A stretch of 25,976 nucleotides of DNA from a virus (Duplodnaviria; Heunggongvirae; Uroviricota; Caudoviricetes): the IMG/VR virus record IMGVR_UViG_2529293141_000017, positions 1 through 25,976 of that record, one strand, 5' to 3'. Of the stretch, positions 1-23,567 are shown piece by piece. Positions within the stretch are counted from its first letter, which is position 1; every line of letters begins with the position of its first letter. Made by a program: the position numbers and the translations under genes. A model generated the notes under the pieces. That model did no database searches and was not told the DNA's origin. It saw only the letters and a program-made list of their open reading frames with translations.

Positions 1-918
1 GAAACCCGCAATGAAATCACGCAGACGGTCAGTAAAACTCTGGAAGACCAGAGTGCCACCATACAGCAGATACAGCGGGTGCAGACAGACACAAATAACG
101 ACCTGGCTGCGCTGTACATGCTGAAGGTGCAGAAAACAAAAAACGGCATTCCGTATGTTGCCGGTATAGGTGCGGGGATTGAGGATGCTGATGGCCAGCC
201 CCTGAGCAATATACTGCTGCAGGCGGACCGTATCGCGATGATTAACCCGGAGAACGGCAACAGCACGCCGCTGTTTGTGGCGCAGGGGAATCAGCTGTTC
301 ATGAACGATGTGTTCCTGAAGCGACTGTTTGCAGTGAGCATCACCTCGTCCGGCAATCCCCCGACGTTCTCCCTGACGCCGGAGGGCAGGCTGACGGCCC
401 GCAATGCGGACATCAGCGGACATATCAGTGCGAACTCGGGCACGCTCAATAATGTCGTGATAGCGGAGAACTGTACGATAAATGGCACGCTGAAAGCGGA
501 GAACATTATTGGTGATCTTGTGAAATGTGCAGGGGTGGCTTTTCCGGTGGATGGTAGTTACCTTGCGAACGGTACACGAACGCTGACGGTGTATGACGAT
601 CACAGCTTTGACCGGCAGATTATAATCCCGCCGATAATCTATGTCGGGTCAAAACAGGAATCCCGCACCAGTAATGACATCTGGACAGAGTGCTTCCTGC
701 ATGTTGATCAGAACGGACGCCGGATTTATTCAGGCAGGTCAGTGACAGAGCCGGGAATTTTCAGCGGGATCATCGATATGCCAGCCGGTCATGGTCATAT
801 CACCCTGAGTTTTACCGTAAGTTCACGACGTCAGAACGGGAGTTTTGGCAGTTCACGTATCAGTAACCTTCAGGCGATAGTGGTGAAGAAAAACAGCGCG
901 GGGATCAGTATCCGCTGA
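1..918 (+). CDS. J: Phage tail tip / host-specificity protein J, C-terminal part (5' end outside window)
   Basis: Open frame from base 1 with no stop until 918; it sits immediately upstream of the side-tail-fibre gene, as in lambda. The product assignment is from reading the translation, not from a search. Confidence 0.7.
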
Positions 919-1116
919 ACATCGCGCCCCGGGATTGCCGGAAGGAGACAAAAACCGTACAGTATGCGCGGGTGCCTTTGGCTGATGGCCGGAGGGAACA
1001 CCTGAAGGCCGGAAAGACGAAGGCCCCGGACAAACATTCATGTTTAACCCGAGGCCTGACGTTCTTCCTTCAGCAAGAAGAAGGTTAGCGCCTCTCCGTA
1101 AAAGGAGCAAGCGTTT

Positions 1117-1251
1117 ATGTCGCAAAAACCGTTAAAAACCACCGTGATTTGTATCACGGTAGTGCTCATTATCTGGATCACCCACAGTTCACTGTGCGAG
1201 TTCCGGTTCCGGATAGCGGGGCGCGGAGATTGCGGCGTTCTTACAGTGTAA
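1117..1251 (+). CDS. Hok/Gef-family-like small membrane peptide (44 aa), possibly truncated
   Basis: Own translation MSQKPLKTTVICITVVLIIWITHSSLCEFRFRIAGRGDCGVLTV: an N-terminal hydrophobic helix followed by SLCEFRFR, matching the Hok/RelF core (KSLCEIRYR). AAGGAG sits 6 nt upstream of the ATG. The C-terminus diverges from Hok. Confidence 0.3.
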   Translation: MSQKPLKTTVICITVVLIIWITHSSLCEFRFRIAGRGDCGVLTV

Positions 1252-1353
1252 GCAGTAAGAAACCGTGGCGGGGGAGAATATCCCCCGCCGACCGGTTGCT
1301 GAGGGTGGTCAGCCGGATGGCACCGTTTTAACACCAACAAACCACAAATTTTA

Positions 1354-1387
1354 CCGCAGGCCGGGAAACCGGTACTGCGGTTTTTTT
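1354..1387 (+). terminator. Rho-independent terminator-like hairpin immediately upstream of stf
   Basis: CCGCAGG ... CTGCGG stem with a nested CCGG pair, followed by T7, then GGGGG and the ATG at 1401. Confidence 0.5.
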
Positions 1388-1400
1388 ATGGGGGAAATCC

Positions 1401-2801
1401 ATGACAGTCAGAATATCGGGTGTGCTGAAGGATGGTACGGGAAAACCGGTACCGGGATGCACGATAGAGCTGAAAGCGCGCCGCACAACGGAGACGGTGA
1501 TTGTCACCACGGTGGCGTATGGTCAGCCGGGGGAAACCGGCAGTTACAGTATGGATGTTGAGCCGGGTCTGTACCGGGTGACGCTGAACACGGAAGGGTA
1601 CGCGCCGTCATATGTGGGTGACATTCTGGTGAAGGCGGATTCTGCACCGGGAACGCTGAATAAATTTCTGATGGACCTGGAGGACGCACAGTATTACCCG
1701 AAAGCCCTTGCAGAGCTGGAAGCGGTGGCAGCGGAAATCCTGAAACGTGCAGAAGCGTCAGCGGCCAGTGCGGAGGAGGCAAAAAAACGGGCAGAGAATG
1801 CGCGGGGACCGAAGGGGGATAAGGGGGACACCGGGCCGCAGGGTATTCCCGGGCCAAAAGGCGATACCCGCGAGCGGGGGCCAAAGGGTGAGCGTGGTGA
1901 GACAGGACCACAGGGGCTTCAGGGTGTGAAAGGTGAACGGGGAGAGAAGGGCGAAAAAGGCGAGCCGGGAGGGCCGGATGCGACGACGGCACAGAAGGGA
2001 ATTGTGCAGTTAAGCAGCACAACGGACAGTGATGATGAAACGAAGGCAGCCACCCCGAAAGCGGTGAAAGCGGCAATGGACAAAGCGGACGGATGCCTGG
2101 AGAAAGCGAAAAACGGTGACGATATCCCGGATAAGGTGAAGTTTCTGAACACCGTGGGGGCAGCCAGAGTATACGGGCGGGACATTCATACGGGGGCCGG
2201 TGAATGGACCACGAGTGAGTTTGTCGCCTGGCTGAAAGAAAAAGGGGCATTTGACCAGCCTTACTGGATGATGAAGGCATCACTGCTTGCGGAATTTAAT
2301 AAGGTCATCACGGATGTCGGACCGGGAAAACTCAATCTGGGAGGCTGCGCCATTGAGGTGATGGGGACGTATAACGCAGCCATAGTCCGGGTCACCATCG
2401 GCGAATACGGTGGCGATGGTTTTCTGAACGGCACGGTCTGTACCTGTACAGTTTATGGAGACACACAACGTTTTCACTGGCGGGTGGATTACAGCACAAA
2501 AAACAAGCCCACAACAGCAAGCCTGACAGTAAATGGCTGGGAGCGTGATGAAGTAACCGGTCGTTTGCGGCAATGGGGCAGTATTGAGGTAAGTGAGGAT
2601 GATGGTAAGCTTATGACACAGCACTCTATCCGTTTTCCTGTCGCTTTTCCGGTTGCTGCTCTGAATGCTCAGGTGTCTGCAGTGGGAGACCCCAACGCCA
2701 TTAAGATGTATACCCTGTCGAATCCGTCATTAGTGTCTGTGACTCTGATAACAGTCAGGGGATGCTACGGCAAGTTTTCATGGGAAGCGATCGGATACTG
2801 A
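1401..2801 (+). CDS. stf: Side tail fibre protein (lambda Stf-like) with an internal collagen-like Gly-X-Y repeat region
   Basis: The N-terminus MTVRISGVLKDGTGKPV..CTIELKARR parallels lambda Stf (MAVKISGVLKDGTGKPV), and KGIVQLSSTTDS..ATPKAVKAAMD matches the conserved fibre motif. About 58 residues of G-X-Y repeats lie at nt 1806-1980. Confidence 0.85.
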   Translation: MTVRISGVLKDGTGKPVPGCTIELKARRTTETVIVTTVAYGQPGETGSYSMDVEPGLYRVTLNTEGYAPSYVGDILVKADSAPGTLNKFLMDLEDAQYYPKALAELEAVAAEILKRAEASAASAEEAKKRAENARGPKGDKGDTGPQGIPGPKGDTRERGPKGERGETGPQGLQGVKGERGEKGEKGEPGGPDATTAQKGIVQLSSTTDSDDETKAATPKAVKAAMDKADGCLEKAKNGDDIPDKVKFLNTVGAARVYGRDIHTGAGEWTTSEFVAWLKEKGAFDQPYWMMKASLLAEFNKVITDVGPGKLNLGGCAIEVMGTYNAAIVRVTIGEYGGDGFLNGTVCTCTVYGDTQRFHWRVDYSTKNKPTTASLTVNGWERDEVTGRLRQWGSIEVSEDDGKLMTQHSIRFPVAFPVAALNAQVSAVGDPNAIKMYTLSNPSLVSVTLITVRGCYGKFSWEAIGY

Positions 2802-2810
2802 GGGCATTGT

Positions 2811-3035
2811 ATGGAACAGTATGTTTTTTCACCGTCAGAGAATATGTTCTATCCCCTGTCCCTGCGGCCGGTTTATGAGGCAGCAGGGCGCTGGCCGGAA
2901 GACGGTATTGTGGTGGATTATGTGGTGTATAAAGTCTTTGCAGCGGATGCTGCACCGGCAGGTATGAAGCGGGGCGTCGGTGCGGAAAAAATGCCGGTCT
3001 GGGTGCCGGTATCGGAGGAGGGCACGGAAACATGA
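2811..3035 (+). CDS. Tail fibre assembly protein-like, N-terminal-type fragment (74 aa)
   Basis: The N-terminus MEQYVFSPSENMFYP...AGRWPEDG resembles the N-terminal motif of tail fibre assembly chaperones. It is too short for a full Tfa and its stop overlaps the next start (ATGA). Confidence 0.4.
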   Translation: MEQYVFSPSENMFYPLSLRPVYEAAGRWPEDGIVVDYVVYKVFAADAAPAGMKRGVGAEKMPVWVPVSEEGTET

Positions 3036-3304
3036 TGCATATCAGAAATTTTTCGTATTACACCCCGGCGGAGCCGGATGTTGCAGGCGCGATGTACCTG
3101 AAGTCTGAGGATGGTCAGGACTGGTATGAGTGTCAGGCGTTGTTTTCGCCGGAGACGCTGAAGGTGGTGTATGACAGCCGGGGTGTGATTACGGGATACG
3201 GTAAGGACACTGCGTTACTGTGGCCGGTGAACCAGAGTGTGGCAGAAGTGCCGGATACCCCGGAGAACAGGAAAATTGACCTGAGCGGGCGCTGGGGGTT
3301 TTGA
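3032..3304 (+). CDS. tfa: Tail fibre assembly protein (Mu U / P2 G-like), N-terminal part; frame broken at a T4 run
   Basis: SEDGQDWYE...ETLKVVYD...VAEVPD...DLSGRWGF parallels P2 G / Mu U up to the W-x-F motif and then stops. The continuation DGEKI... lies in the -1 frame (see findings). Confidence 0.55.
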   Translation: MMHIRNFSYYTPAEPDVAGAMYLKSEDGQDWYECQALFSPETLKVVYDSRGVITGYGKDTALLWPVNQSVAEVPDTPENRKIDLSGRWGF

Positions 3305-3350
3305 CGGGGAGAAAATCACGGACCTGCTGACCGCGGAGAAAGCGCGAGGG

Positions 3351-3707
3351 ATGAAGGGCGATGAAATTAACGCCTGGCGTAATGCGATGGAAGCGGCGAA
3401 CTACACGTTTGAGCACAATGGGCGTAAATGGGACTACGGGAAGTCAACGCAGACGCGTCTTGAGCCATCGGTGGCGGCGGCGAAAGCGGGGAAACTGCCG
3501 GAGGCGTTTTTCTGGACGGATGCGGAAAACAATGATGTGCCGGTGACAGCAGAAGAGCTTATTGCGCTGAGTGAAGCGGCAGAGCAGGCGATGTTCACTA
3601 AAGGGATGGAAATCCACATTCGCCAGCGCACCATGAAGAAGGACCTGGAATCGCTGAGCAGTGCGGATGAGATCCTGGCATACAGGGTTGGCTGGGCACA
3701 GGAATAA
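3351..3707 (+). CDS. tfa: Downstream part of the same tail fibre assembly gene (or a separate 118-aa chaperone-domain ORF)
   Basis: The frame is open from 3285 and reads ...FDGEKITDLL..., completing the W-G-F-D-G motif of the upstream ORF. ATG 3351 has only a poor Shine-Dalgarno. Confidence 0.45.
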   Translation: MKGDEINAWRNAMEAANYTFEHNGRKWDYGKSTQTRLEPSVAAAKAGKLPEAFFWTDAENNDVPVTAEELIALSEAAEQAMFTKGMEIHIRQRTMKKDLESLSSADEILAYRVGWAQE

Positions 3708-3870
3708 CAGACAAAAAGATGGGGGACCATCACCTCCCCCATGAACTGCGTTGATTATGTCATTATTGTGAAGATATACACTATGCCGGGTAAATAGTGC
3801 CACGGAAAAGTTAATTCCGGAAGTGACGGAACTCTCATTTTTCGCGCATCCTGTTGATATGGATGATTTT

Positions 3871-4200
3871 TCAGATTTCCGGAAGTCCGTATTTTGCCCG
3901 GGCGCGGTTGCATGCTTCATTTGCGATGCCATTTTCTCCGGACATTGCGAATTCCCGGCACGTGGACGGACGGTTTTTGTAAACAGAGCAATATGCGTTT
4001 TTACCCGGAGTTCCCGCCAGAGCGACACATCGGGGATTTTTCTGACTGGTGCCGCGCATACAGCGATGAAAGGGGGATATTTGCTCAGTGAGACTGACCG
4101 GAACCTTTCCGCCAGCATCGTCAGCTTCTGCCCAGTAAAAAGAGACGCGGAAAAATGCACAACAGGCACCACACGTCATGCATGGATTCGGATTGTTCAT
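3871..4200 (-). CDS. YkgJ-family Cys-cluster (CxxCxxCC) zinc/iron-chelating protein, prophage moron
   Basis: [12 protein letters not shown]...RCMRGT...PRCVALAG...[14 protein letters not shown] fits the YkgJ-type pattern. Start chosen at MNNPNPC; an alternative in-frame ATG lies at 4257. Confidence 0.5.
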
Positions 4201-4299
4201 TTTTATACTATTTGTTGTTTTTTCAGCGATCAGATCAAAGGACGCTGAAAAAAACATTCTCCAAAATTAAATTATAACTATTTGATTTTATGGATAGAG

Positions 4300-4331
4300 G
4301 CATGCTTTTTACGCAAAAGTAAAAAGCATGC
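4300..4331. other. Perfect 13-bp-stem hairpin (GCATGCTTTTTAC / GTAAAAAGCATGC) between the prophage end and the potB stop
   Basis: Exact inverted repeat with a 6-nt loop, about 35 bp beyond the potB stop codon. Confidence 0.5.
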
Positions 4332-4364
4332 CAAATTTGCTATTAACTCTTTGAATATTCAGCA

Positions 4365-5228
4365 CTAATCATCTATTTCGGTTGCCTTCTTATTCAGCAA
4401 ACGAGAAGCGCGCCAGTAAACCAGCAACATCAGGCCCATTACGATAGTCAGCGTAATGCTGGTAGCTGCACCAAACGGCCAGTCACGAATATTAAGGAAC
4501 TGGACCTTGATGACGTTACCGATCAGCAGGTTTTTCGCACCGCCCATCAGGTCGGATACATAGAACAGGCCCATCGCTGGCAGCATCACCAGCAGACATC
4601 CGGCAATAATTCCCGGCATCGTCAGTGGAATAATGATACGGATAAAAGTCTGTAACTTGCTGGCACCGAGATCGCGCGCCGCCTCAAGCAACGGCTTATC
4701 CAGTTTTTCGATACTGGAGTACAGCGGCATCACCATAAACGGCAGCAGAATGTAAACCAGACCGATAATCACCGCACTGGGCGTGAACATGATACGGATT
4801 GGTGTGTCGATAACGCCCAGCCAGAGCAAAAACTCGTTGAGATAGCCTTTGGTGCTGAGGAAAATTTTCAGCCCGTAGATACGAATTAATGAGTTGGTCC
4901 AGAACGGAACAATCAGCAGAAACAGCAGCAGCGGACGCACCTTGTGTGGCAACTTCGCCAGAAACCAGGCAAACGGGTAGCCCAGCACCAGGCAGGCGAG
5001 GGTGGCGATCAGCGCCATATTCAGCGAGTGCAATAGCACTTCAAAATAGAGCGGATCGAGCAGACGCGTGTAGTTATCCAGCGTAAAGACCATTTTGACA
5101 AAACTGGCGTCGTCGCGGGTCAAAAAGCTGGTGCCAATGATCATCAGGTTGGGCAGAAAGACAAACAACACAAGCCAACCGACAATAGTGACAATCACTA
5201 CATTCTGGAACTTACTTGTGTTCTTCAT
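4365..5228 (-). CDS. potB: Spermidine/putrescine ABC transporter permease PotB
   Basis: 287-aa multi-TM permease with the EAARDLGA signature. Its start overlaps the potA stop, as in the potABCD operon. Confidence 0.93.
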
Positions 5229-9221: not shown

Positions 9222-9242
9222 GTGATGACCGGATTCAAAATT

Positions 9243-10472
9243 ATGAGCAGAGCACTTAACAAACTGAGCGATACACAGCTGAGGAAAATCAACGGCACAC
9301 CCGCCCAAAAAACAGCCTTTCTTAATGACGGTGGAAACCTGAGCGTCAGGCATTCAACCAGTGGCCTTTTAACCTGGTATTTCACTTACAGGGCCGGAAC
9401 GGGAAGGGGGGCACCACCGGAACGCATTAAGCTGGGAAATTATCCTGATCTGAGCCTGAAATCAGCCAGGGAAAAAGCCGCCCAGTGTCGCGCATGGCTG
9501 GCAGAGGGGAAAAATCCACGTCATGAAATGAATTACACCGTACAGGAAGCGTTAAAGCCGGTAACGGTTGGCGATGCGCTCACCTACTGGCTTGAGTCGT
9601 ACGCAAAGGAAAACCGTGTGGATTATGACCCACTGAAAAAGCGGCTAAATAATCACGTAATACAGCACATTGGCCCTATGCCGCTGGATAAATGCGAGCT
9701 ACGGCACTGGCTGACCTGTTTTGATCGGGTGGCAAAGAAAGCCCCTGTTTCCGCCGGGTTCCTGCTACAGACATGCAAGCAGGCGCTTAAGTTCTGCAGG
9801 AAGCGGCGCTATGCAATCAGCAACGTTCTTGATGATATGAGTGTGGCGGACGTTGGGAAAAAACCGGATATAAGTGAGCGTGTCTTAAGTAACAAAGAAC
9901 TTGGCGAATTATTGCAGGCACTGGACAAAAAAATATTTTCCCCTTACTACGTCGCACTAATCCGCCTCCTGATTGTTTTCGGATGCCGGACAGTAGAACT
10001 GAGGTTATCGGAGATCGGCGAGTGGGATTTTACCGAAATGCTCTGGACCGTTCCGAAGGAGCACAGCAAAACGAAGGTAGCCATATTCCGGCCCATACCG
10101 GAAGCGATACTGCCGTTCGTCACGCAGCTGGTGGAGCAGAACAGGCACACGGGCTTATTGCTGGGGGAAGTGAAACAGGAAACCAGCGTATCGCAGTACG
10201 GCAGATTGGTGCACAGGAGGCTTAAACACCCTCACTGGTCACTGCATGACATCCGGCGCACCTTTACAACCATGCTGAACGATTTAGGCGTTGATCCTCA
10301 CGTCGTGGAGCAGCTTACAGGCCACCAGATGCCAGGAATGCAACGCGTGTACAACCATTCCCGCTATATTGATGCGAAACGCAATGCGCTTGATATGTGG
10401 GTGGAGCGGTTGGAGATACTGGCGGGAACACATGAAAACGTAACCACGCTACCAGTAACCAGAATAAAATAA
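9243..10472 (+). CDS. int: Tyrosine integrase (P4-type)
   Basis: N-terminal LSDTQLRKI...NDGGNLSV...WYFTYR arm-binding-like region, and a C-terminal catalytic region with HDIRRTF and a terminal RY...H. Alternative ATG at 9222. Confidence 0.88.
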   Translation: MSRALNKLSDTQLRKINGTPAQKTAFLNDGGNLSVRHSTSGLLTWYFTYRAGTGRGAPPERIKLGNYPDLSLKSAREKAAQCRAWLAEGKNPRHEMNYTVQEALKPVTVGDALTYWLESYAKENRVDYDPLKKRLNNHVIQHIGPMPLDKCELRHWLTCFDRVAKKAPVSAGFLLQTCKQALKFCRKRRYAISNVLDDMSVADVGKKPDISERVLSNKELGELLQALDKKIFSPYYVALIRLLIVFGCRTVELRLSEIGEWDFTEMLWTVPKEHSKTKVAIFRPIPEAILPFVTQLVEQNRHTGLLLGEVKQETSVSQYGRLVHRRLKHPHWSLHDIRRTFTTMLNDLGVDPHVVEQLTGHQMPGMQRVYNHSRYIDAKRNALDMWVERLEILAGTHENVTTLPVTRIK

Positions 10473-10846
10473 TTTTTTTCGTGTTTTTTCAGTATGCGCA
10501 TACTGGATAAGTGCACAGATACAACGTGAAACAATGTGCAATAACGTGACACAATCACGAACAAGAGGCCAAAAAGAATACAGATTTATAAGTTACTGAT
10601 TTTTAATGCTCAGCTGGTTTTTTATACATTAGTGAATTACGCGTTAAAGCGTGCGAAAAAAGGCATAAAACAAGATTTTATGCCTTTGTATTAACATGAA
10701 TTTAAATGATTTTATCCTGATTATTCCTCTTTCTGTAAACCATGCGACACCAACATTTGCCAACTCTGAATCATCCTGACACAATCAGACACATCCCAAC
10801 GCAATAGAACACGAAATAACTCTTTAAGAAACGAAAGGGGGCAATA

Positions 10847-11035
10847 GTGTTAAGCACTGATCGGTTTATACGTGAAAAAGAATGCGAAAAGCTAACAGGC
10901 CTTAGCCGCTCATGCCGCTACCGCCTGGAAAAGGCCGGACAATTCCCATCACGTCGTAAACTTGGCGGGCGTTCTGTTGGCTGGTCTTTATCTGAGGTTT
11001 TGGCCTGGAAGGATAGCTGCAAGGCAGTTCACTAA
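10847..11035 (+). CDS. alpA: AlpA-family (MerR/Xis-like) transcriptional regulator
   Basis: 62 aa with LTGLSRS..YRL...FP..RKLGGRSVGW, matching the AlpA pattern. GTG start with an AAGGGGG Shine-Dalgarno. Confidence 0.75.
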   Translation: MLSTDRFIREKECEKLTGLSRSCRYRLEKAGQFPSRRKLGGRSVGWSLSEVLAWKDSCKAVH

Positions 11036-11215
11036 AAAGACTGGCGGCACACAGCCACCACCAATCCATTATTGACCGATACCGGGATCTCGGTATCGGG
11101 AATAAACGCCATAATACTGAGGTATAACCATGATGAAATATACGCCCGTACAGGGGCGGGGATTCGTTCGCCCTGGTGAATCTGAAAAGCCATGCTATAG
11201 GGTATTTTCAGGCAT

Positions 11216-11243
11216 AAAAAAAGCGGTCCCGATATGGAACCGC
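11216..11243 (-). terminator. Rho-independent terminator for the minus-strand repressor cassette
   Basis: On the minus strand: GGCGGTTCC atatc GGGACCGC followed by T7. Confidence 0.45.
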
Positions 11244-11311
11244 CTTTCTGAACAATTAACCCGCTGCGCCGTATGTGTCAACAATCATAAGCCCGAACAT
11301 GATAACCGTGA

Positions 11312-11515
11312 TCAGGCTGGTGGGCAATTACCTTGCTTGTTGGGGCCGTATTGTGCTGCCATTTTCATCCGTTCAGAACGTGAATATTTTTTTAGAAACT
11401 CATCAAGGACAAAAGCGCATGGAGCGAATCTTTCTGATTCATGCTCGAGCGCCATATTTTCGTGCTCTCTGTTCGTTTTTTGCGATGGTGTATTGGTTGA
11501 TTCTTTATTGGTCAT
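11312..11515 (-). CDS. Hypothetical small protein (67 aa), second gene of repressor cassette A
   Basis: Paralogue of 12028-12255: shared MTN start and a conserved C-terminal F-x-L-D/E-x-F-x-K-Y-x-R motif. It is followed by a terminator. Confidence 0.45.
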   Translation of the reverse strand: MTNKESTNTPSQKTNREHENMALEHESERFAPCAFVLDEFLKKYSRSERMKMAAQYGPNKQGNCPPA

Positions 11516-11572
11516 TGTGTGTACCTGTAAAGCAATGCGCCGTAGTACCTCACGCCACGGCGCTGATAGTAA

Positions 11573-11752
11573 TTATTCTGATTCTTTGGCCTTGCGGCGC
11601 TGGCGGCGTTTGATCTCGCCTTTTGCTGCCGTAACTAGAAATCCGGCGGTACTTTCGCCAGGTTCTTTAAGTTGCTCAATATCGGTCATTACCTCATGCG
11701 GGATTCTGACCGTTGTCATTTGTGATTTTGCGTTCTTTGCACCTGTTGCCAT
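11573..11752 (-). CDS. Ribbon-helix-helix DNA-binding protein (59 aa), candidate island repressor, copy A
   Basis: Own translation MATGAKNAKSQMTTVRIPHEVMTDIEQLKEPGESTAGFLVTAAKGEIKRRQRRKAKESE, with a beta-strand / helix / helix pattern. AGGAGA Shine-Dalgarno 7 nt upstream. Divergent from a plus-strand promoter and operators. Confidence 0.55.
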   Translation of the reverse strand: MATGAKNAKSQMTTVRIPHEVMTDIEQLKEPGESTAGFLVTAAKGEIKRRQRRKAKESE

Positions 11753-11771
11753 TTCTGGTTCTCCTGATAAT

Positions 11772-11864
11772 CGGTGTATTTCAGTATACGCAAAAAAAAG
11801 ATAAAAAAAGTCTTGCGGTGTATTTCACCTGAATGTAGATTTAAAAATGAAGGTGAAATACACC
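11772..11864. promoter_or_regulatory. Operator/promoter region A: GGTGTATTTCACC in three copies, two forming a perfect 13-bp inverted pair
   Basis: 11817-11829 and 11852-11864 are exact reverse complements; a third direct copy lies at 11772-11783. The region sits between divergent genes. Confidence 0.45.
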
Positions 11865-11938
11865 CAAAACAACAACGCCCCGCAGTGATGGGAACACATA
11901 CGGGGCGTCTAACCAAACCATTAATTGAGGTAACGATT

Positions 11939-12010
11939 ATGGCTATAAAAGAGCATAGCTTACTCTTTATACACACACAAACGCCCCGGAAACGGAATAA
12001 TCCGTTTCAT
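11939..12010 (+). pseudogene. Truncated 5' remnant of an Icd-like gene (paralogue of 12685-12879)
   Basis: MAIKEHSLLFIHTQT... shares the M-x-x-x-H-x-x-x-L-x-HTQT start with 12685, then loses similarity where cassette B begins. Confidence 0.35.
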
Positions 12011-12027
12011 AGTTCGGTTTTGTGCAC

Positions 12028-12255
12028 TCATCCTGGCGGTCGGTTTTTGCCGGATTTAAGCCGCCGTGGGTATTTATCGACAAAATCTTCAAGGGCAAAT
12101 TTTTCTGGTGGCACTAAGCGCGGCGCTGGTGGTGGTATTTTTGTTCTGGTTAGTTCTTCCTCAACTCTGGCGCAGGCTTCTGACTGCCTTTGCCGGATGA
12201 TTTCATCATCTTGCGTTTGCGTGTCTTGTATTGGTGATAGTGTGTTGTTGGTCAT
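12028..12255 (-). CDS. Hypothetical small protein (75 aa), second gene of repressor cassette B
   Basis: Paralogue of 11312-11515, same position in the cassette. Confidence 0.5.
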   Translation of the reverse strand: MTNNTLSPIQDTQTQDDEIIRQRQSEACARVEEELTRTKIPPPAPRLVPPEKFALEDFVDKYPRRLKSGKNRPPG

Positions 12256-12312
12256 GATACTGCCCTGTAAAGCAATGCGCCGTAGTACCTCACACCACGG
12301 CGCTGATAGTGA

Positions 12313-12492
12313 TTATTCTGATTCTTTGGCCTTGCGACGCTGGCGGTATTCAACTTCCCGCTTTAATGCAGCTGTAACAAACTGCCCTGTACTTTCGCCG
12401 GGCATTTTTACCGCCTCAACATTGTTCATAACTTCATGTGGAACCCTTGCCGCAACTGTTTGTGATTTTGCGTTTACTGCTTTTGTCGCCAT
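12313..12492 (-). CDS. Ribbon-helix-helix DNA-binding protein (59 aa), candidate island repressor, copy B
   Basis: MATKAVNAKSQTVAARVPHEVMNNVEAVKMPGESTGQFVTAALKREV.... GAGGGG Shine-Dalgarno upstream. Divergent from the replication operon. Confidence 0.6.
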   Translation of the reverse strand: MATKAVNAKSQTVAARVPHEVMNNVEAVKMPGESTGQFVTAALKREVEYRQRRKAKESE

Positions 12493-12542
12493 GTTGAGCA
12501 CCCCTCATAAAAAACAAATGCAGTATGCAGGAAAAAAAACAA

Positions 12543-12594
12543 GTGTTCAACACTTGACGTGTTTAACACCTCGATTTAAATTGGTGTTCAACAC
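12543..12594. promoter_or_regulatory. Operator/promoter region B: three GTGTT(C/T)AACAC palindromes overlapping a TTGACG-N17-TAAATT promoter
   Basis: Palindromes at 12543, 12559 and 12584 bracket the -35 and -10 of the plus-strand promoter feeding 12685 onward. Confidence 0.5.
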
Positions 12595-12684
12595 CTTATT
12601 TAGGCAAGGTGTAGAAACGACGAAACCCCGCACTGTAGGAGCAGTAACGGGGCTTCTAACCAACAACGTAAACGAGGAGCCGTT

Positions 12685-12879
12685 ATGGTTGCCGTAAATC
12701 ATATACCACACCTTGTACACACACAAACGGCCTTTGTGTGGCGTTTTCTGGCACTGAGTGCCGGAGAATCTCAAATCATCCACGTAACCGCCTGGACGGA
12801 ACGCGAAGCGCGTAACCTTTGCCCGTCCGGTTGTGTTGCTGTATTTGCCGCCCGTATTCGCCAGGGGGTAGGCTTATGA
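12685..12879 (+). CDS. Small protein, possibly Icd-like (host cell division inhibitor family); first gene of the early operon
   Basis: 64 aa with a GAGGAG Shine-Dalgarno. The motif FVWRFLALS...TEREAR...FAARI resembles Icd-like proteins of P4-type elements, from memory only. Confidence 0.5.
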   Translation: MVAVNHIPHLVHTQTAFVWRFLALSAGESQIIHVTAWTEREARNLCPSGCVAVFAARIRQGVGL

Positions 12880-13109
12880 GCCAGGAAATCACACTACAAC
12901 AGGCAGCAGAACGCGCCCACCAAATCGAAGTTATTTGCGCACTGGCAGAGGATTACCCTGGCATGATGACCGACAGCGAATCAGGGGCAATCATCGGCTT
13001 ACTTAAACGCCTTAGCGGTGAGGTCTGCGTATTCCTGAGCGATGAACAGGAAAGAAGAACGCTTATTTCTAACGAAAAAAAATGCGGAGGGGTACACCAT
13101 GTGCAATAA
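12876..13109 (+). CDS. Hypothetical protein (77 aa)
   Basis: ATG overlaps the upstream stop (ATGA); GGGGGT Shine-Dalgarno; translationally coupled. Confidence 0.5.
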   Translation: MSQEITLQQAAERAHQIEVICALAEDYPGMMTDSESGAIIGLLKRLSGEVCVFLSDEQERRTLISNEKKCGGVHHVQ

Positions 13110-13341
13110 CATCCGTCCGGACGCAGCCGCCGCCGCACTCACTACGCTGATGCACGCGCTTATTGATATTGAATGCACGGCAGAGCTTGCACAAAAGGAA
13201 GAACGGGAGGAATACACATTGTTCGCCCTGGAATGTATCCGATACACCGCCACGCGGTCGCTGAATGACGCTAAAAATATTCTTGTTGCAGATTGTGAAA
13301 ATGGGGGGGGGTTATGCGTGATGATCGTTTTAATTCCCTGA
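13099..13341 (+). CDS. Hypothetical protein (80 aa) with a G9 tract near its 3' end
   Basis: GGAGGGG Shine-Dalgarno before ATG 13099; overlaps the neighbouring genes. Confidence 0.45.
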   Translation: MCNNIRPDAAAAALTTLMHALIDIECTAELAQKEEREEYTLFALECIRYTATRSLNDAKNILVADCENGGGLCVMIVLIP

Positions 13342-13547
13342 AACAAGAATTTTCCGGCGTTCCTGATGATGCGGCTGATGCGCTTTCGTCAATGCCAGAA
13401 CTTATTAGAGCGGCTTTTTTCTTACTTTCCACGAGAGAATATAAATCAACGGGGCTTGATGTACTGAATATCGCCGCCGATTATGCGGAATATGTGGCAG
13501 AGGCGCGTTACAGAAGAAAATTTCCTGAGGATGTAAGCCATGCGTGA
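13314..13547 (+). CDS. Hypothetical protein (77 aa)
   Basis: ATG directly after the G9 tract, which serves as its Shine-Dalgarno; operon context. Confidence 0.5.
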   Translation: MRDDRFNSLKQEFSGVPDDAADALSSMPELIRAAFFLLSTREYKSTGLDVLNIAADYAEYVAEARYRRKFPEDVSHA

Positions 13548-13773
13548 TATTTACCACGAAACAACAGAACGCGTATTTCTTGCACTTTCTCACAGTGAAA
13601 ACATGCTGGAAATATTGCGCATATGGCTTGAAACACTTGGCGACAATGAACGCGACAAACAAAAATCAAGAATTGTCACGGCATTAATAACGCTTCTTGA
13701 GCCTGTAATAATGGAACTACAAGAAATAGAGACATTGCACGACAGATATAACGAACAGCACACCGGAGAATAA
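13540..13773 (+). CDS. Hypothetical protein (77 aa)
   Basis: Start overlaps the upstream stop (ATGCGTGA); operon context. Confidence 0.5.
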   Translation: MRDIYHETTERVFLALSHSENMLEILRIWLETLGDNERDKQKSRIVTALITLLEPVIMELQEIETLHDRYNEQHTGE

Positions 13774-13778
13774 AAATA

Positions 13779-14078
13779 ATGAAACTTAAATATTCTGGCT
13801 TAACTGCCAGTGGCAACACTCACCCTAAATTTACGCGCGGTGATATTTACCGCGACCAGTACGGCGGTACGGTAATGATTAAGGGCGTGGCGGGACGGTG
13901 CGTAACTTACCGCCGTGAAGGTTACGAATATGATTGCGTGATGCCTGTTTATCAGTTCCGGCGTGATTTTTCTCTGGTACAGACCGCGCCGCATAACGTG
14001 CCCACCAGCAGGGAGAAAGCACGCGCCAATATTCAGAAGATGAAAAACATGATTAACGGATTCAGGGGCAAGAAATGA
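13779..14078 (+). CDS. Hypothetical protein (99 aa), translationally coupled to the helicase gene
   Basis: Stop overlaps the helicase ATG (ATGA). Confidence 0.55.
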   Translation: MKLKYSGLTASGNTHPKFTRGDIYRDQYGGTVMIKGVAGRCVTYRREGYEYDCVMPVYQFRRDFSLVQTAPHNVPTSREKARANIQKMKNMINGFRGKK

Positions 14079-15472
14079 AAAGCGCACCGAACTTAAAAAA
14101 ACAGCCTTACGACAAGATGACCGAAGTCATCATTTTTGCGGGTAGTGATGCGTGGGCACATGCGAAACAGTGGCAGGAACAGGACGGGCGACTGGCTGGC
14201 GATAATGTGCCTCCCATTGTGCTGGCTGATGATCAACTGGATGAACTGGCAGACCTGAGAATCATCGACGAGGGGCGCTATTGTGTCCGGCTGTACAAGG
14301 CAGGCCACATCAGGCCATCAAATATTAATGCCATTGCGCACAAGCTGGCGGCGGCGGGCGTAACTGATGCGAATTATTACCCCGAAGGGATACACAGCCA
14401 GAAGCGGGAGAACTGGCGCGAATATCTGGAACGGGAGCGGGGGAAAAAGCCAGGGGAAGAACACCACCAGCGAAAAACCACGCTACCGATGAGCGTTGGA
14501 TCTGCCGGATACGACACGCAATTAGATTACGTGGTAAAGGGGATTATTCCGGCATCGTCGCTTTGCAGCATATACGGGGCGAGCGGTTCCTATAAATCAT
14601 TCCTTGCGGGTTCGTGGGCGTGTCACGTTTCCACGGGCCGCCAGTGGGGAGGCCGCAGGGTGGCGCATGGCGCTGTTCTCTATGTGGTTGGTGAAGGCGG
14701 TATCGGCGTTCCGCGTCGTGTAAAAGCCTGGGAGGTTGTGCACGGTGAGCAGGTGAAAAATCTGTATCTGGTAAACCGTCCCATCTTTCCGGCGGTCCCG
14801 CTTGATGTTGATGAAATGGTTATCGCTGCCCGTCAGGTGGAGCGGGAAACGGGTAAACCTGTACGCATGATTATTCTGGATACGCTGGCGCGTTGCTTTG
14901 GTGGGAATGATGAAAATGATTCCCGTGATATGGGGGCGTTTATCCGTGGTTGTGACGAACTGAAACGACGCACAGGGGCCACGGTGCTGGTGGTTCACCA
15001 TTCCGGCAAGGATGAGACGAAAGGCGCGCGCGGTTCCAGTGCATTTCGTGCATCACTGGATGCTGAATACCGGATACGCAGGGAGGACGCAGGAAGCGAA
15101 GCGCTGGTTATCTCATGCACCAAAATGAAGGACGCGGAGGAACTCAAAGAAGCCGCATATGACTTACGCGTGGTGGAGCTGTTTACCGACGCTGACGGGG
15201 AGTTAATCACGTCGCTGGTGGTGGTGGATAAGCCGCGCCCTCCCGTTGAACTGGAGCGCATCGAGGAGGCAGGCAACAAGACGGAAAACCATACCGCACT
15301 ATGGGGGTGCATCCGTTCACGCACACAGAACGGCGACAAGTGCACGATCCCGCTGTTACGTGATGACATGAAACGGCTTGGGTATGACGTGAAAAATATG
15401 CGGCGATGGTTAGCCAAACTGGAAAAAGACGCCGTGATTTACATTGATGGTGATGATGTAGGACCACTGTAA
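14075..15472 (+). CDS. Replicative ATPase/helicase (RecA-fold, RepA/AAA_25-like) with an N-terminal domain of unknown role
   Basis: Walker A GASGSYKS, Walker B-like ILDTLARCFGG, and VVHHSGKD...GARGSSA motifs. Confidence 0.8.
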   Translation: MKSAPNLKKQPYDKMTEVIIFAGSDAWAHAKQWQEQDGRLAGDNVPPIVLADDQLDELADLRIIDEGRYCVRLYKAGHIRPSNINAIAHKLAAAGVTDANYYPEGIHSQKRENWREYLERERGKKPGEEHHQRKTTLPMSVGSAGYDTQLDYVVKGIIPASSLCSIYGASGSYKSFLAGSWACHVSTGRQWGGRRVAHGAVLYVVGEGGIGVPRRVKAWEVVHGEQVKNLYLVNRPIFPAVPLDVDEMVIAARQVERETGKPVRMIILDTLARCFGGNDENDSRDMGAFIRGCDELKRRTGATVLVVHHSGKDETKGARGSSAFRASLDAEYRIRREDAGSEALVISCTKMKDAEELKEAAYDLRVVELFTDADGELITSLVVVDKPRPPVELERIEEAGNKTENHTALWGCIRSRTQNGDKCTIPLLRDDMKRLGYDVKNMRRWLAKLEKDAVIYIDGDDVGPL

Positions 15473-15672
15473 AAAGTGAGTAGCAAAAGTGAGTAATGAT
15501 GAGGTTTTTACAAAATATTAACACGATTACTCACTTTCTCACCTGTATACATGCTCAAAAGTGAGGAGTAAAAAAATCATTATGAAACATACACATAAAG
15601 CATCAAAAAATATCAAGTGAGACGAAGCGAGACGCTTTAAAAAGTGAGGTGTAAAAGTGAGCATGAGTGAGG
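15473..15672. repeat. Iteron array (AAAGTGAG, at least 7 direct and 1-2 inverted copies) with an AT-rich spacer: candidate island replication origin
   Basis: Copies at 15473, 15486, 15530 (inverted), 15558, 15615, 15641 and 15654, immediately 3' of the helicase gene. Confidence 0.55.
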
Positions 15673-15926
15673 AGATAACCAAAATGCGCAGAGACAGAAC
15701 AGGGCCGAAATATAAAGCGTTAGACATGACAGAGCACGCCTTAAAGGTGGCAATCAGGGTAATAGACCGCCACGCGGGGGAAGGATACGCGAAAGCACAT
15801 CCCGAACTGATAAGCGCATTCATGACCACGACGGCGGCAAATTTTGCCACGCTGACAGAGCGGGAGATTGCCGAAGCGGAACAGGTAACAACCATCAACG
15901 TTAAAACCGGAGAGGTGGAATCATGA
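15663..15926 (+). CDS. Hypothetical protein (87 aa)
   Basis: ORF begins inside the last iterons; its stop overlaps the next ATG. Confidence 0.4.
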   Translation: MSEEITKMRRDRTGPKYKALDMTEHALKVAIRVIDRHAGEGYAKAHPELISAFMTTTAANFATLTEREIAEAEQVTTINVKTGEVES

Positions 15927-16228
15927 GCGAACCAAAATTTGGTGAAAAATTTTACAAGCACAACGGACGGATCACGATTCTGCAAATAAGCGCAGCTACA
16001 CCAGGCTGGTGGGTTGAAACAGACGAAGGATCCTCACCCGTGGCATCATGGGCGCTTTGTGTGCTTAGTTACCCTGACCGCGATGTGTATCAGGATATTC
16101 TGCCTGTGATATCCACTGACAAAGGCATGAAACCCGTAGACATCAAAAACATGGGGTTTCAGTGCGTAATGCTCACTGAAAAAATGATGGAAGAGATGAA
16201 AAAGAACAATGCCGGATCGCTTCACTGA
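15923..16228 (+). CDS. Hypothetical protein (101 aa)
   Basis: Coupled ORF upstream of ssb. Confidence 0.5.
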   Translation: MSEPKFGEKFYKHNGRITILQISAATPGWWVETDEGSSPVASWALCVLSYPDRDVYQDILPVISTDKGMKPVDIKNMGFQCVMLTEKMMEEMKKNNAGSLH

Positions 16229-16237
16229 GGTGGCAAT

Positions 16238-16648
16238 ATGACAGCACAAATTGCAGCTTACGGGCGGCTGGTGGACGACCCGCAGGTAAAACAGAGCAGC
16301 AAGGGCACACCGATGACTCTGGCGCGTATGGCGGTATCGTTGCCATGCAGCCAGGCACATGACGGACAGGCGACGTTATGGTTATCGGTTATCGCATTTG
16401 GCAAACAGGCCGATTTCCTGGCTAAACATCAAAAAGGCGATGTTGCCAGCGTATCCGGCACGATGCAGGTAAGCCAGTGGACCGGACAGAACGGGGAAAC
16501 GCGGCGGGGGTATCAGGTTATTGCAGACAGCGTAATCAGTGCCCGCGCGGCACGTCCAGGCGGGAACAGACGCAAAACCACAGGCACACAGGGTAATCAG
16601 CCACCAGCGGGAGGCGATGACCCTTACGGTGACGGTATTCCGTTCTGA
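16238..16648 (+). CDS. ssb: Single-stranded DNA-binding protein
   Basis: OB-fold-like N-terminal region, a Gly/Pro/Gln-rich linker, and an acidic C-terminal tip DDPYGDGIPF (compare DDDIPF of SSB). Confidence 0.8.
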   Translation: MTAQIAAYGRLVDDPQVKQSSKGTPMTLARMAVSLPCSQAHDGQATLWLSVIAFGKQADFLAKHQKGDVASVSGTMQVSQWTGQNGETRRGYQVIADSVISARAARPGGNRRKTTGTQGNQPPAGGDDPYGDGIPF

Positions 16649-16658
16649 GGGGGTGACG

Positions 16659-16907
16659 ATGGTACATGACCGCATAGCGGAGGAACTCGAGGCAAAAGGC
16701 TTTTACCGGAGGGCGTCGGCGCGATGGGGTGAAGTCATGCAACTGGTGGAGACAGACAAGGAACGGCATCAGGTTACGATGCGACGGCTGGAATGTTCCA
16801 GGAAGGCACAGAGGCCACCGGAGCCGCCAACGGAGAACTACGCAGACCTGAGAAATGCAGTAAATCGCACTTACGCAGACATGGGGCTGAGCAAATTAGC
16901 AGAGTAG
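16659..16907 (+). CDS. PerC-family-like transcriptional regulator (82 aa)
   Basis: MVHDRIAEELEAKGFYRRASARWGEVM resembles the PerC/Pch N-terminal motif; GAGGGGG Shine-Dalgarno. Confidence 0.5.
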   Translation: MVHDRIAEELEAKGFYRRASARWGEVMQLVETDKERHQVTMRRLECSRKAQRPPEPPTENYADLRNAVNRTYADMGLSKLAE

Positions 16908-17173
16908 GAATATCAGAACCACACCATACAGCCGGAGCAATCCGGCTTTTTGTTATTTTTTGTAAATTATTTGTTCGTGGTTGTTCCACGTTGTTCACTG
17001 AGCGGATCGGCATATTTTACCCGAACTGAATCATGATTATTCTCGCCCGTGGTGCCAGGACGCTGGGGCCACTTTCCCGCCTGTTAATGTGCTCGCCAAT
17101 ATTCATTACCAGGCGGGAAAACGATCGGTGCGATTGCTGATTTCCTTATGAAAAACGGTTGAGTGTTTGCCGC

Positions 17174-17211
17174 GTCCTGGAGTTCCTTACTTAACCCCAG
17201 GACTTTTTTTT
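17174..17211 (+). terminator. Terminator-like hairpin plus T8 ending 1 nt before the major capsid ATG
   Basis: GTCCTGG ... CCAGGAC stem followed by TTTTTTTT and then ATG 17212. Confidence 0.45.
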
Positions 17212-18369
17212 ATGCCGAGAATAATCGAATTACGCCAGCAGAAAACCGCCATTAAAAATCAGATGCGCGACATGCTGGAGAACGCTGAAAAAGAAAACCG
17301 CAGTCTTAACGATGCTGAGGGCGCAAAATTTGACGAATTACGCGCTAAAGCTGAATCCCTCGATAAAGACATTTCCCGCCTTGAAGCCATTGCAGACGAA
17401 GAGCGCAGCAAGCCAGGTAAAAGCAGTCAGACCACTGACCCCGCAGAACTACGAAACTACATTCTGACGGGTGAAACCCGCGCATTAAGTACAGGCGTTC
17501 CCGCTGATGGTGGTTATACCGTTATCCCCGAACTGAACACCGAAATCATGCGAATGCTGACGGATGAATCCACCATGCGCCGCATCTGTACCGTGAAGAA
17601 AATCAGCAGCAACGAGTTTAAGCAGCTTGTTTCCGCTGGCGGTGCGACCGTTAACCACGGTGAAGAGGGTAAGGCACGCGAACAGACCAGCACCCCGCAG
17701 ATTAACGAGGTGAGCATTAAGCTGTATCCGGTCTATGCGTACCCGCGCACCACACAGGAAATCGTGGATTTTTCCGATGTGGACATCCTTTCATGGCTGA
17801 CGGGTGAGATTGGCGACACCTTCACGGAAACCGAAGAAAGCGATCTGGTTGTGGGCGACGGTGACAAAAAAGCAAAAGGTTTTTTATCCGTACCCCGTGC
17901 AGAGAAGAACGACAAAGAGCGTGATTTTGGTACGTTGCAGGTAATTAAACCTTCCGAATCTCTGGCGTGGACATCTGCGGACCCGTTGATCGACCTGAAA
18001 TTTGCATTACGTAAAAAATACCGCAAAAACGCGGTCTGGGTGGTTAACTCCACGACGGCGGCAAAACTTCAGAAGGTGAAGAACGCGAACGGTGATTACA
18101 TCTGGCGCGACCGTTTACAGGCGGGTGATCCTGATACGTTGCTGGGCCTTCCGGTCGAATATCTGGAGTTTATGCCTGATAACGTTATTGCCCTGGGTGA
18201 CTTCAAACGCGGTTACTACATTGTTGATCACGAAACAGGTGTTCGCACCAGACCGGACAACCTCACAGAGCCGGGCTTCATCAAAATTTTCACGCAGAAA
18301 TATTTAGGCGGTGGCGTGGTGGATTCGAACGCGATCAAGATTCTGGAACTGCCACAGGACGACGATTAA
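17212..18369 (+). CDS. Major capsid protein (HK97 fold)
   Basis: Coiled-coil delta-domain-like N-terminus, ~385 aa, followed by a prohead protease gene. The TTG at 17167 is rejected because it would read through the hairpin. Confidence 0.88.
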   Translation: MPRIIELRQQKTAIKNQMRDMLENAEKENRSLNDAEGAKFDELRAKAESLDKDISRLEAIADEERSKPGKSSQTTDPAELRNYILTGETRALSTGVPADGGYTVIPELNTEIMRMLTDESTMRRICTVKKISSNEFKQLVSAGGATVNHGEEGKAREQTSTPQINEVSIKLYPVYAYPRTTQEIVDFSDVDILSWLTGEIGDTFTETEESDLVVGDGDKKAKGFLSVPRAEKNDKERDFGTLQVIKPSESLAWTSADPLIDLKFALRKKYRKNAVWVVNSTTAAKLQKVKNANGDYIWRDRLQAGDPDTLLGLPVEYLEFMPDNVIALGDFKRGYYIVDHETGVRTRPDNLTEPGFIKIFTQKYLGGGVVDSNAIKILELPQDDD

Positions 18370-18423
18370 CAGCATACAGAAGGGGCTTAAAAGCCCCTTT
18401 AGTGTTTTATGGGTGAAAAAATT

Positions 18424-18981
18424 ATGAAGAGTATGGAAATCCGGTCATCGGAAATCACCACCAGCGGAGCCGGTACGCTGACGGGCTACGTTGTTCGCTG
18501 GGATAAGCTTTCAGAACTGTTATGGGGTGAGTTTTACGAAAAATTCCAGCGGGGAGCGTTTACTGAATGGCTTGCAGCGGGTAATGACGTTCGCGGCCTG
18601 TATGAGCATGACCACAGTATGTTACTGGGGCGTACCCGTTCCGGCACGCTGAAACTGGAAGAGGACGAAACAGGGTTACGCTTTGAACTGACCCCACCGG
18701 ATACCAGCACAGGGCGGGACGTTATCGAACTGGTTAAACGTGGTGATATATCCGGCATGAGCTTTGGCTTTCGTTCCCGTAAGGATGTATGGGATACCAC
18801 AACAGATCCATGCGTGCGCACCGTGCTGGTGGCGGAACTGTACGAAATTACCGTTACATCCGTTCCGGCTTACCCTGATTCCGGCGTGGAGCTGGCCCGC
18901 CGTTCCCTGTATGAGCAGCACCCCGAAAAAATGCCGCGTGCGGATAATCGCCGCTGGTGGGTGGATTTAGCGGGGGTGTGA
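18424..18981 (+). CDS. Prohead maturation protease (HK97-family)
   Basis: Position between capsid and portal genes, and size. Alternative ATG at 18409. Confidence 0.8.
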   Translation: MKSMEIRSSEITTSGAGTLTGYVVRWDKLSELLWGEFYEKFQRGAFTEWLAAGNDVRGLYEHDHSMLLGRTRSGTLKLEEDETGLRFELTPPDTSTGRDVIELVKRGDISGMSFGFRSRKDVWDTTTDPCVRTVLVAELYEITVTSVPAYPDSGVELARRSLYEQHPEKMPRADNRRWWVDLAGV

Positions 18982-18982
18982 T

Positions 18983-20194: not shown

Positions 20195-20529
20195 ACATAG
20201 GGCGACTGCGTGACAGGATAACGATTCAGACCCTGAAACAGACCAGAGCCATGACGGGCGAAATACTCGAAACGTGGGAGGACGGTCACACACTCTGGGC
20301 AAGCGTGAACATGATCAGCAGCAAGGAGGCCATTTCATCGGGCGCAGAGCTGGCGATTGGTACCGTAAGGATCTGGATACGGTACCGGAAGGACATCAAC
20401 GCCACCAGCCGGATAAAGGTCAGTACGGGGCCGCTGGCGGGGCGTGTACTGAATATCATCGGGCAGCCGTTGCCGGATGTCGCCAGGACACGCCTTGAAA
20501 TTCTTTGTCGTGAGGGCGCGGAAAAATGA
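20191..20529 (+). CDS. Head-tail adaptor / head closure protein
   Basis: Small coupled ORF after the portal gene (ATGA overlap); the longer start at 20149 is rejected. Confidence 0.55.
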   Translation: MNIGRLRDRITIQTLKQTRAMTGEILETWEDGHTLWASVNMISSKEAISSGAELAIGTVRIWIRYRKDINATSRIKVSTGPLAGRVLNIIGQPLPDVARTRLEILCREGAEK

Positions 20530-23554: not shown

Positions 23555-23567
23555 TGAGGTCAGCAGC

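Follow-up and report, generated by a model that had tools for sequence, protein, structure and literature searches.

Among prophage hok genes, hokW-sokW of the Shiga toxin (Stx) phages Sp5 and 933W is the only one that has been studied experimentally, and it was found to speed up lysis and phage release on induction (PMC8621323). Plasmid R1 carries hok/mok/sok (parB), where mok must be translated as far as the hok Shine-Dalgarno (SD) sequence for hok to be translated (PMC9841398). A survey of Hok peptides reported M1, C16, T18, L30, C31, E32 and E41 as the residues conserved in more than 80% of them (bioRxiv 10.1101/2025.08.07.668861). Here we describe a hok locus in a 25,976-nucleotide (nt) stretch of viral DNA, IMG/VR record IMGVR_UViG_2529293141_000017 (hereafter the window, in which all positions are given unless stated otherwise). 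Its toxin open reading frame (ORF), at 1117..1251 on the plus strand, encodes 44 amino acids (aa). Positions 935-1388 very probably constitute a complete hok/sok-type type I toxin-antitoxin (TA) cassette, which a lambdoid prophage carries as a moron between its gpJ and side-tail-fibre genes; by alignment, the locus is a frameshifted copy of the one that encodes RefSeq WP_000078852.1.

The closest counterpart is the 46-aa prophage Hok (WP_000078852.1/WP_000078853.1), whose gene occupies the same gpJ/tail-fibre site, with 99.8% DNA identity over 521 bases and with a leader, Sok region, hairpin and terminator identical to those of the window. It reads GGG where the window has GGGG at 1218-1221, and the window ORF has 44 aa instead. 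Peptide 79_1563 (cluster 79), which differs from the intact 46-aa form at Q46R only, was among 45 homologues tested and is not among the three named as non-toxic (bioRxiv 10.1101/2025.08.07.668861); by exclusion, it is toxic.

The nearest distinct relative is an unnamed 46-aa hok found after lom in Stx phages of the 933W/Sp5/Shigella phage 75/02 type (L0129 in 933W; peptide 72_1589). Its architecture is the same, its DNA shows about 77.5% identity over 380 bases, and its location is again a tail-end moron region. The two loci have in common the mRNA 5' end, Sok -10 region, SD and C-terminus, as well as the post-stop hairpin and the pairing of the mRNA ends. However, this relative lies downstream of lom, which the window hok replaces, and its mature peptide region differs from that of the window. 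It also has no terminator of its own, the next gene beginning at the fbi-like element, and no upstream ORF passes through its SD; in phage 75/02 the locus falls below the gathering score of Rfam RF01794. Phages of the 933W/Sp5 type carry two hok loci (933W 58.4-58.7 kb and 45.5-45.9 kb), namely hokW-mokW-sokW and the 46-aa hok directly after lom. The latter is annotated as hypothetical only, the hokW paper (PMC8621323) does not mention a second locus, and we found no paper on the lom-adjacent locus itself.

The hokW-mokW-sokW locus is likewise a type I TA cassette in a lambdoid prophage. Its antisense RNA sokW, of about 71 nt, has a -10 box, TAACCT, that is identical to that of the window and in a homologous place, and changing this box to GAGCCT (primers YO-421/422) abolished antitoxin activity (PMC8621323). 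A post-stop hairpin equivalent to that of the window and complementary 5' and 3' ends are recognisable there as well. In contrast to the window gene, hokW is a different paralogue encoding a 51-aa peptide of the HokD cluster, its mokW is an in-frame upstream extension, and the locus lies on the other strand, close to the phage's right end; hokW has been analysed experimentally, whereas the window's lineage has an overexpression test only.

Compared with R1, the window hok has the same membrane-peptide layout with 39% identity over the core (intact 46-aa form against R1 Hok in BLASTP, 33 residues, E = 7e-11). The two loci also have in common, as predicted here, the tac/fbi end-pairing with its tac/ucb alternative, a target hairpin, sequestration of the hok SD and a cis-antisense RNA about 64 nt long. 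Unlike R1, which needs a 70-codon mok translated to the hok SD, the window's lineage has no such conserved frame, and the window locus has an unstructured spacer of about 28 nt between the fbi-like arm and the terminator. The R1 gene is on a plasmid, whereas the window hok sits in a prophage late region.

Results

Translation of 1117..1251 (+) gives MSQKPLKTTVICITVVLIIWITHSSLCEFRFRIAGRGDCGVLTV. A preliminary description of this DNA, made from its letters, had singled out a small ORF with a good SD, and we indeed found AAGGAG nine bases before the ATG at 1117. The transmembrane helix and the SLCEFRFR motif that it reported are likewise present in the 44-aa peptide: the hydrophobic stretch at residues 8-22 (TTVICITVVLIIWIT) has a mean Kyte-Doolittle value of 2.5, against 3.1 for R1 Hok at the same position. 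Its assignment to the Hok/Gef family is borne out by profile searches. The peptide scored 30.2 bits against Pfam HOK_GEF (PF01848; gathering cut-off 22, E = 3.4e-7), over profile positions 8-30 of 42 only, and matched PHROG 251 (MokW-like host killing; moron category) over residues 1-35 with E = 2.2e-14, compared with E = 1.8e-21 over residues 1-46 for the intact 46-aa form; the leader matched Rfam RF01794. In an alignment with R1 Hok, M1, C12, T14, L26, C27 and E28 of the window peptide correspond to six of the seven conserved Hok residues, the equivalent of E41 being lost. RefSeq labels homologues of this ORF "Hok/Gef family protein". On these sequence grounds, 1117..1251 is a genuine Hok/Gef-family membrane peptide gene and no chance ORF.

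The name HokA, used by one source, was rejected, as the peptide scores below the NCBIfam cut-offs: against NF007290 (HokA equivalog, cut-off 89) the window and intact peptides reached 22.9 and 38.2 bits, and against NF007279 (Hok subfamily, cut-off 73) they reached 27.1 and 37.2 bits. A search of the PADLOC-DB 2.0 defence-system models returned no family at E <= 1 for either peptide.

The cassette is flanked by the C-terminus of gpJ, with its stop at 918, and by the side-tail-fibre gene at 1401-2801. The hok ORF therefore occupies lambda's lom slot, as the preliminary description had placed it, and the lambdoid prophage that carries it is integrated next to potB. In the matching loci that we inspected, the cassette also sits between gpJ and the tail fibre. 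Over its 521 bases the identity is 97.5-99.8% among the best matches listed in complete E. coli genomes. Among 5426 such genomes, the window version is present at nearly full length in 119, and the approximately 77%-identical relative in about 1400 more.

To define the RNA elements of the cassette (Table 1), we aligned the window with 12 related loci gathered by DNA similarity searches. These 13 loci represent four contexts: the J/tail-fibre interval of lambdoid prophages, the position after lom in 933W-type Stx phages, the position after ogr in P2-like elements, and IncI1 plasmids. Invariant blocks in all of them are the mRNA 5' end GGGTGCCTTT, AAGGCCCCG, AGGTTAGCGCCTC and AAAGGAG-CAAG, which are more conserved than the coding sequence. 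The last two are the plus-strand sequences of the Sok promoter. The leader scored 62.9 bits against Rfam RF01794 (sok; gathering score 59) at 970-1128, spanning the full model (1-157), and no other Rfam family exceeds its threshold anywhere in the window. The RF01794 match lies on the hok-sense strand and extends from the 5' end of the mRNA as far as the hok AUG, and the same holds in 933W (L016 603-777). Because sokW of 933W is annotated on the opposite strand, the match marks the leader and not the antisense strand. Weak matches to Clostridiales-2 (16 against 58.6 bits) and isrK (15 against 50) at 1258-1387 were dismissed as chance hits to the GC hairpin and the terminator.

The predicted hok promoter matches the consensus at 8 of 12 positions, which is below the scan threshold, and each of the 13 loci has a TAnnnT hexamer whose distance from the conserved GGGTGCC is the same. 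Folding of the predicted mRNA (970-1388) gave a minimum free energy (MFE) of -187.6 kcal/mol, with z = -8.3 against dinucleotide shuffles. In this fold the 5' end pairs with a 3' arm, and such a pairing was found about 310 nt downstream of the 5' arm in every locus. In the two-arm alignment, 94.1% of the cells are paired, compared with 31-51% in slid controls, and none of 500 shuffles reached 94.1%. Six pairs are changed on both sides, and in window-type loci a 1-nt deletion in the 5' arm is matched by a 3' arm that is 1 nt shorter, so that the register is kept.

When the 3' arm is removed, the predicted structure of the leader changes. An alternative 5' hairpin forms, which also appears in the RNAalifold consensus of 8 loci and is the first helix of the RF01794 consensus. 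The target hairpin, whose stem is conserved in both consensus structures, forms in the truncated mRNA only, and the probability that 1060-1076 is unpaired rises from 0.16 to 0.51. In the folds of the full-length and of the Sok-blocked mRNA, a 9-10-bp hairpin (1087-1097 with 1104-1115) encloses the GGAG of the SD, whereas the SD stem of the truncated free fold has only 3 bp.

An antisense promoter and a Sok-like RNA on the minus strand, for which the preliminary description had suggested looking, are both present as sequence features. The predicted RNA consists of a single-stranded 5' end, a long hairpin and a U-rich tail (fold of 1076->1010, -29.9 kcal/mol, z = -4.3), with complementarity between its free 5' end and the target-hairpin loop.

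Downstream of the stop codon, the preliminary description had noted a palindromic hairpin at 1266-1288. The hairpin is there, but it lies one base further right: GGCGGGGGA/TCCCCCGCC at 1267-1275/1281-1289 form 9 bp, 8 of them G-C, around a 5-nt loop. RNAalifold, run on 7 distinct loci, recovered 14 pairs in the whole stem-loop, of which 4 show two-sided compensatory changes. A consensus scan calls the palindrome terminator-like on the minus strand, and a role for 1267-1289 as the terminator of hok or of a minus-strand transcript was considered. We reject it as highly improbable: no minus-strand gene runs into the palindrome, and the plus strand continues GACCGG without a T run. Moreover, the fbi-like arm, which is necessarily part of the mRNA, lies downstream of the palindrome, a proper terminator follows further on at 1353-1387, and the hairpin is kept with compensatory changes in every context, even where the downstream sequence differs. 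The comparison across loci identifies the palindrome as the core of a conserved internal element of the 3' untranslated region (UTR), not a terminator. Loci of the J-stf context keep the terminator at 1353-1387, and in other contexts different sequence stands in its place; the consensus scan did not list this terminator.

Table 1 Features of the hok/sok-type cassette and their positions in the window
Feature	Position	Strand	Basis or remark
Predicted weak hok promoter	935..963	+	-35 TTGCCG 935-940, 17-nt spacer, -10 TACAGT 958-963; read by hand
Predicted full-length hok mRNA, 419 nt	970..1388	+	5' end from start of RF01794 match and invariant GGGTGCC; 3' end from terminator
Alternative 5' hairpin (tac/ucb-like)	970..1027	+	forms without the 3' arm; folds of mRNA truncated at 1292-1306
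5' arm of end-pairing (tac-like)	971..986	+	pairs with 1308-1324 in MFE fold, 16 bp
Predicted Sok-like antisense RNA, about 63 nt	1013..1075	-	ends set by homology with annotated sokW of 933W
31-codon leader ORF, mok-like by position only	1040..1135	+	reads through hok SD and start
Target hairpin GAGGC...GCCUC	1051..1094	+	loop 1068-1076 with UUCA, complementary to Sok 5' end
Predicted Sok promoter	1082..1110	-	-35 TTGCTC 1110-1105, 17-nt spacer, -10 TAACCT 1087-1082; invariant plus-strand blocks
hok SD AAGGAG	1102-1107	+	nine bases upstream of ATG
hok ORF, 44 aa	1117..1251	+	codons 1-35 Hok; codons 36-44 out of frame
G run with one extra G, frameshift site	1218..1221	+	GGGG against GGG in all aligned relatives
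Displaced ancestral C-terminus AEIAAFLQCKQ and stop 1256-1258	1223..1258	+	now out of frame; translation of relatives
Conserved 3'-UTR stem-loop	1261..1297	+	outer stem 1261-1265/1293-1297, inner palindrome 1267-1275/1281-1289
3' arm of end-pairing (fbi-like)	1308..1324	+	MFE fold and alignment of arms
Intrinsic hok mRNA terminator	1353..1387	+	12-bp stem, GAAA loop, T7; 13 nt before tail-fibre ATG at 1401

We also asked whether a leader frame passes through the hok SD. A three-frame scan of the 13 loci, in which the 933W control showed mokW, found no upstream start codon for such a frame in 7 of them. Because of this, the 31-codon ORF at 1040-1135 is probably fortuitous, and after the scan we dropped it as a conserved mok element. 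A 70-codon ORF, as long as R1 mok and overlapping hok in a different frame, is opened in E. coli JNE120393 (~1547-1757) by two 1-nt indels with respect to the window. It begins with an ATG at mRNA +71, and phage 1720a-02, 96% identical, has a stop there instead.

Within the cassette, the lone difference from the best relatives is the extra G at 1218-1221. The relatives aligned at this run are three close relatives, phage 1720a-02, JNE120393 and nine further loci. The relatives' gene is 141 nt long and encodes 46 aa, MSQKPLKTTVICITVVLIIWITHSSLCEFRFRIAGAEIAAFLQCKQ. In the window the frame shifts after Gly35 (codon 35), converting residues 36-46, AEIAAFLQCKQ, into RGDCGVLTV, and the stop codon is now at 1249-1251 instead of 1256-1258. 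Every profile match to the window peptide ends at residue 32-35. The peptide retains the transmembrane helix and LCE but loses the E-(I/V)-A-A-F-(L/M)-x-(C/Y) tail, which corresponds to the conserved C-terminal (periplasmic) segment E41-V-A-A-F-M-x-(Y/C)48 in R1 numbering; by alignment, the entire equivalent of R1 residues 40-50 is gone. Deletion of one G in silico restored this segment, and the repaired peptide scored 46.6 bits against Pfam HOK_GEF over profile positions 8-42 and matched PHROG 251 over 2-49 of 50.

The toxicity of R1 Hok is suppressed by premature stops, M46I, Y48N, loss of the stop codon and a C-terminal tag (PMC9841398), and truncated R1 Hok is non-toxic (bioRxiv 10.1101/2025.08.07.668861). 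The toxicity of the window allele is doubtful, because the +1 frameshift removes the conserved C-terminal third of the toxin. By analogy with the R1 variants, the extra G would most likely abolish or strongly reduce toxicity, unless it is an assembly error.

The 44-aa allele is RefSeq WP_432706721.1, present on one contig (AFDW01000015.1, GCA_000225145.2) among approximately 15 billion proteins; the first 25976 bases of this contig are the window. The intact peptide WP_000078852.1 is found on at least 1000 contigs. Its cluster comprises 112 member sequences, and the C-terminus is invariant among the members listed, where we found no other frameshift allele at this G run; the shorter entries reflect alternative start calls or partial sequences at contig edges. 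The RNA control elements of the window are all identical to those in intact-gene loci.

Comparison of window positions 1-3707 with the closest complete genome revealed 32 substitutions and only two indels, each of which adds one G to a G run of the window, at 1218 and at 3294. In a 99%-identical block at 16920-23934, three of four indels are +1 in window homopolymers. At 3294 the window has GGGGG against GGGG in relatives, which splits a DUF4376 tail-fibre-associated gene into the ORFs 3032-3304 and 3351-3707; in close relatives it is one 675-nt coding sequence. The +1 differences in the second block, at 17204, 21448 and 21542 (T8/T7, G7/G6 and A6/A5), are all intergenic, with the window longer, and fit miscalls in a draft assembly.

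Elsewhere in the window, the side-tail-fibre protein encoded at 1401-2801 contains collagen-like Gly-X-Y repeats (Pfam Collagen) between phage_tail_N and Gp53-like C-terminal domains. On its right side, the lambdoid prophage ends next to potB, within 3707-4365, and the last gene before potB (3871-4200, minus strand) encodes a YkgJ-family CxxCxxCC protein. Between roxA and phoQ, at approximately 9222-23900, lies an island that carries, according to the annotation of the matching region of JNE120393, an integrase, an Icd-like protein, RepA helicase, SSB and PerC. It also has an HK97 capsid, protease, portal, connectors, HNH, TerS and TerL, with no tail genes in the annotation. By this gene content it looks like a capsid-forming phage-inducible chromosomal island, that is, a satellite.

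Discussion

The locus itself was already known: it is catalogued in RefSeq, its intact peptide has been surveyed and tested, and little about it is new. The points worth recording are a singleton frameshift, possibly an assembly error, and the absence of a conserved mok from the lineage.

A wrong homopolymer length in the draft assembly (AFDW01000015.1) is one possible origin of the extra G, and the real prophage would then have an intact, toxic 46-aa hok. We give this explanation an even chance. Both +1 G indels in 1-3707 break genes that are intact in every relative, most indels of the second block are likewise +1 in window homopolymers, and the 44-aa peptide is confined to a single contig. 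However, three Gs make a short run for such a miscall, the other three homopolymer differences lie between genes and may reflect natural variation, and chromosomal TA toxin genes are often naturally inactivated. The extra G might equally have arisen in the cell by slippage, leaving a toxin-dead hok that still makes Sok as a step in the domestication or decay of the prophage right end, and we put the likelihood of this slightly short of one half. The adjacent DUF4376 gene is frameshifted too, in keeping with decay of the tail module. No regulatory element has changed, as expected soon after an inactivating hit, and chromosomal hok loci are often inactive according to the literature as summarised in our sources. 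On the other hand, the pattern is identical to that expected of sequencing error, the allele is a singleton, and the cluster members listed include no further frameshift variant. Taken together, the indels show a homopolymer-miscall pattern, and slippage mutations in a decaying prophage end would look alike; the sequence alone does not decide between sequencing error and real mutation, which are about evenly balanced.

For the intact cassette, the R1 and hokW paradigms suggest how the RNA elements would act. The end-pairing would lock the full-length hok mRNA in an inert form (for R1, PMC9841398). Slow 3' trimming would then allow the mRNA to refold, exposing the Sok target loop and loosening the stem on the hok SD. 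As long as it is made, the short-lived Sok would pair with the leader, and RNase III would destroy the duplex. Once Sok synthesis stops, whether through loss of the element, induction or transcriptional shut-off by an infecting phage, Hok would be made and the inner membrane permeabilised.

Several points weigh against this account of the cassette. The promoters, the RNA ends and the switch are predictions drawn from homology and thermodynamics. Neither the hok nor the Sok promoter was found by a sigma-70 consensus scan of 800-1500, and both were for this reason assigned by hand and by homology, both being weak by consensus. The changes on both sides of the end-pairing represent few events, because they consist mostly of one compensated 1-nt indel in related rows. 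The mok frame is not conserved in the lineage, and the R1 mechanism is therefore not transferable unchanged. As for the inactivation of the window allele, its 44-aa product keeps the transmembrane helix and a second cysteine, and it may have residual toxicity.

A tentative and on balance doubtful model is that the 46-aa prophage Hok lineage (clusters 72 and 79) works without mok, with Sok repressing hok directly through an anti-SD switch. In the predicted folds, the 3'-trimmed mRNA would tie 1077-1094 into the target hairpin, leaving a 3-bp stem on the hok SD. Binding of Sok to 1013-1075 would strip away the 5' half of the target hairpin and free 1087-1097, which would then close the 9-10-bp stem over the SD, unlike the leader-ORF block of R1.

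With regard to the biological role, the intact cassette could act as a lysis accelerator on induction, as described for hokW-sokW, with Sok vanishing and early membrane damage leading to more phage release. We regard this as possible, although with a chance nearer one in three than one in two. After mitomycin C, sokW RNA was lost, HokW appeared in a RecA-dependent manner, growth arrest came earlier and phage release doubled (PMC8621323). In the window, hok lies co-oriented inside the late operon, and we infer from this that late transcription would run against the Sok promoter. However, for the 46-aa lineage this role is an analogy with hokW, a different paralogue (51 aa, with mokW) located on the opposite strand and elsewhere in the phage. 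The preliminary description had suggested stabilisation of the prophage or abortive infection, and post-segregational stabilisation, or exclusion of other phages, seems to us rather unlikely. R1 hok/sok stabilises plasmids and reduced the plating of T4, as cited in PMC8621323; the 933W hokW is annotated "prophage maintenance", and hok genes are about four-fold enriched in prophages (bioRxiv 10.1101/2025.08.07.668861). Nevertheless, no PADLOC defence model matches, and in earlier tests, as far as they are summarised in our sources, chromosomal hok loci caused no post-segregational killing. The data do not choose among these roles, and the cassette may serve as a helper of lysis on induction, in prophage maintenance or in phage exclusion.

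For those who use the sequence databases, WP_432706721.1 is a singleton frameshift product that calls for confirmation at the read level before it is accepted as a natural variant. For the biology of the family, our analysis provides the full predicted RNA anatomy of a widespread prophage hok lineage that had previously been analysed at the peptide level only. The mok requirement of R1 is not conserved in this lineage, which raises a small, testable question on how Sok may control translation.

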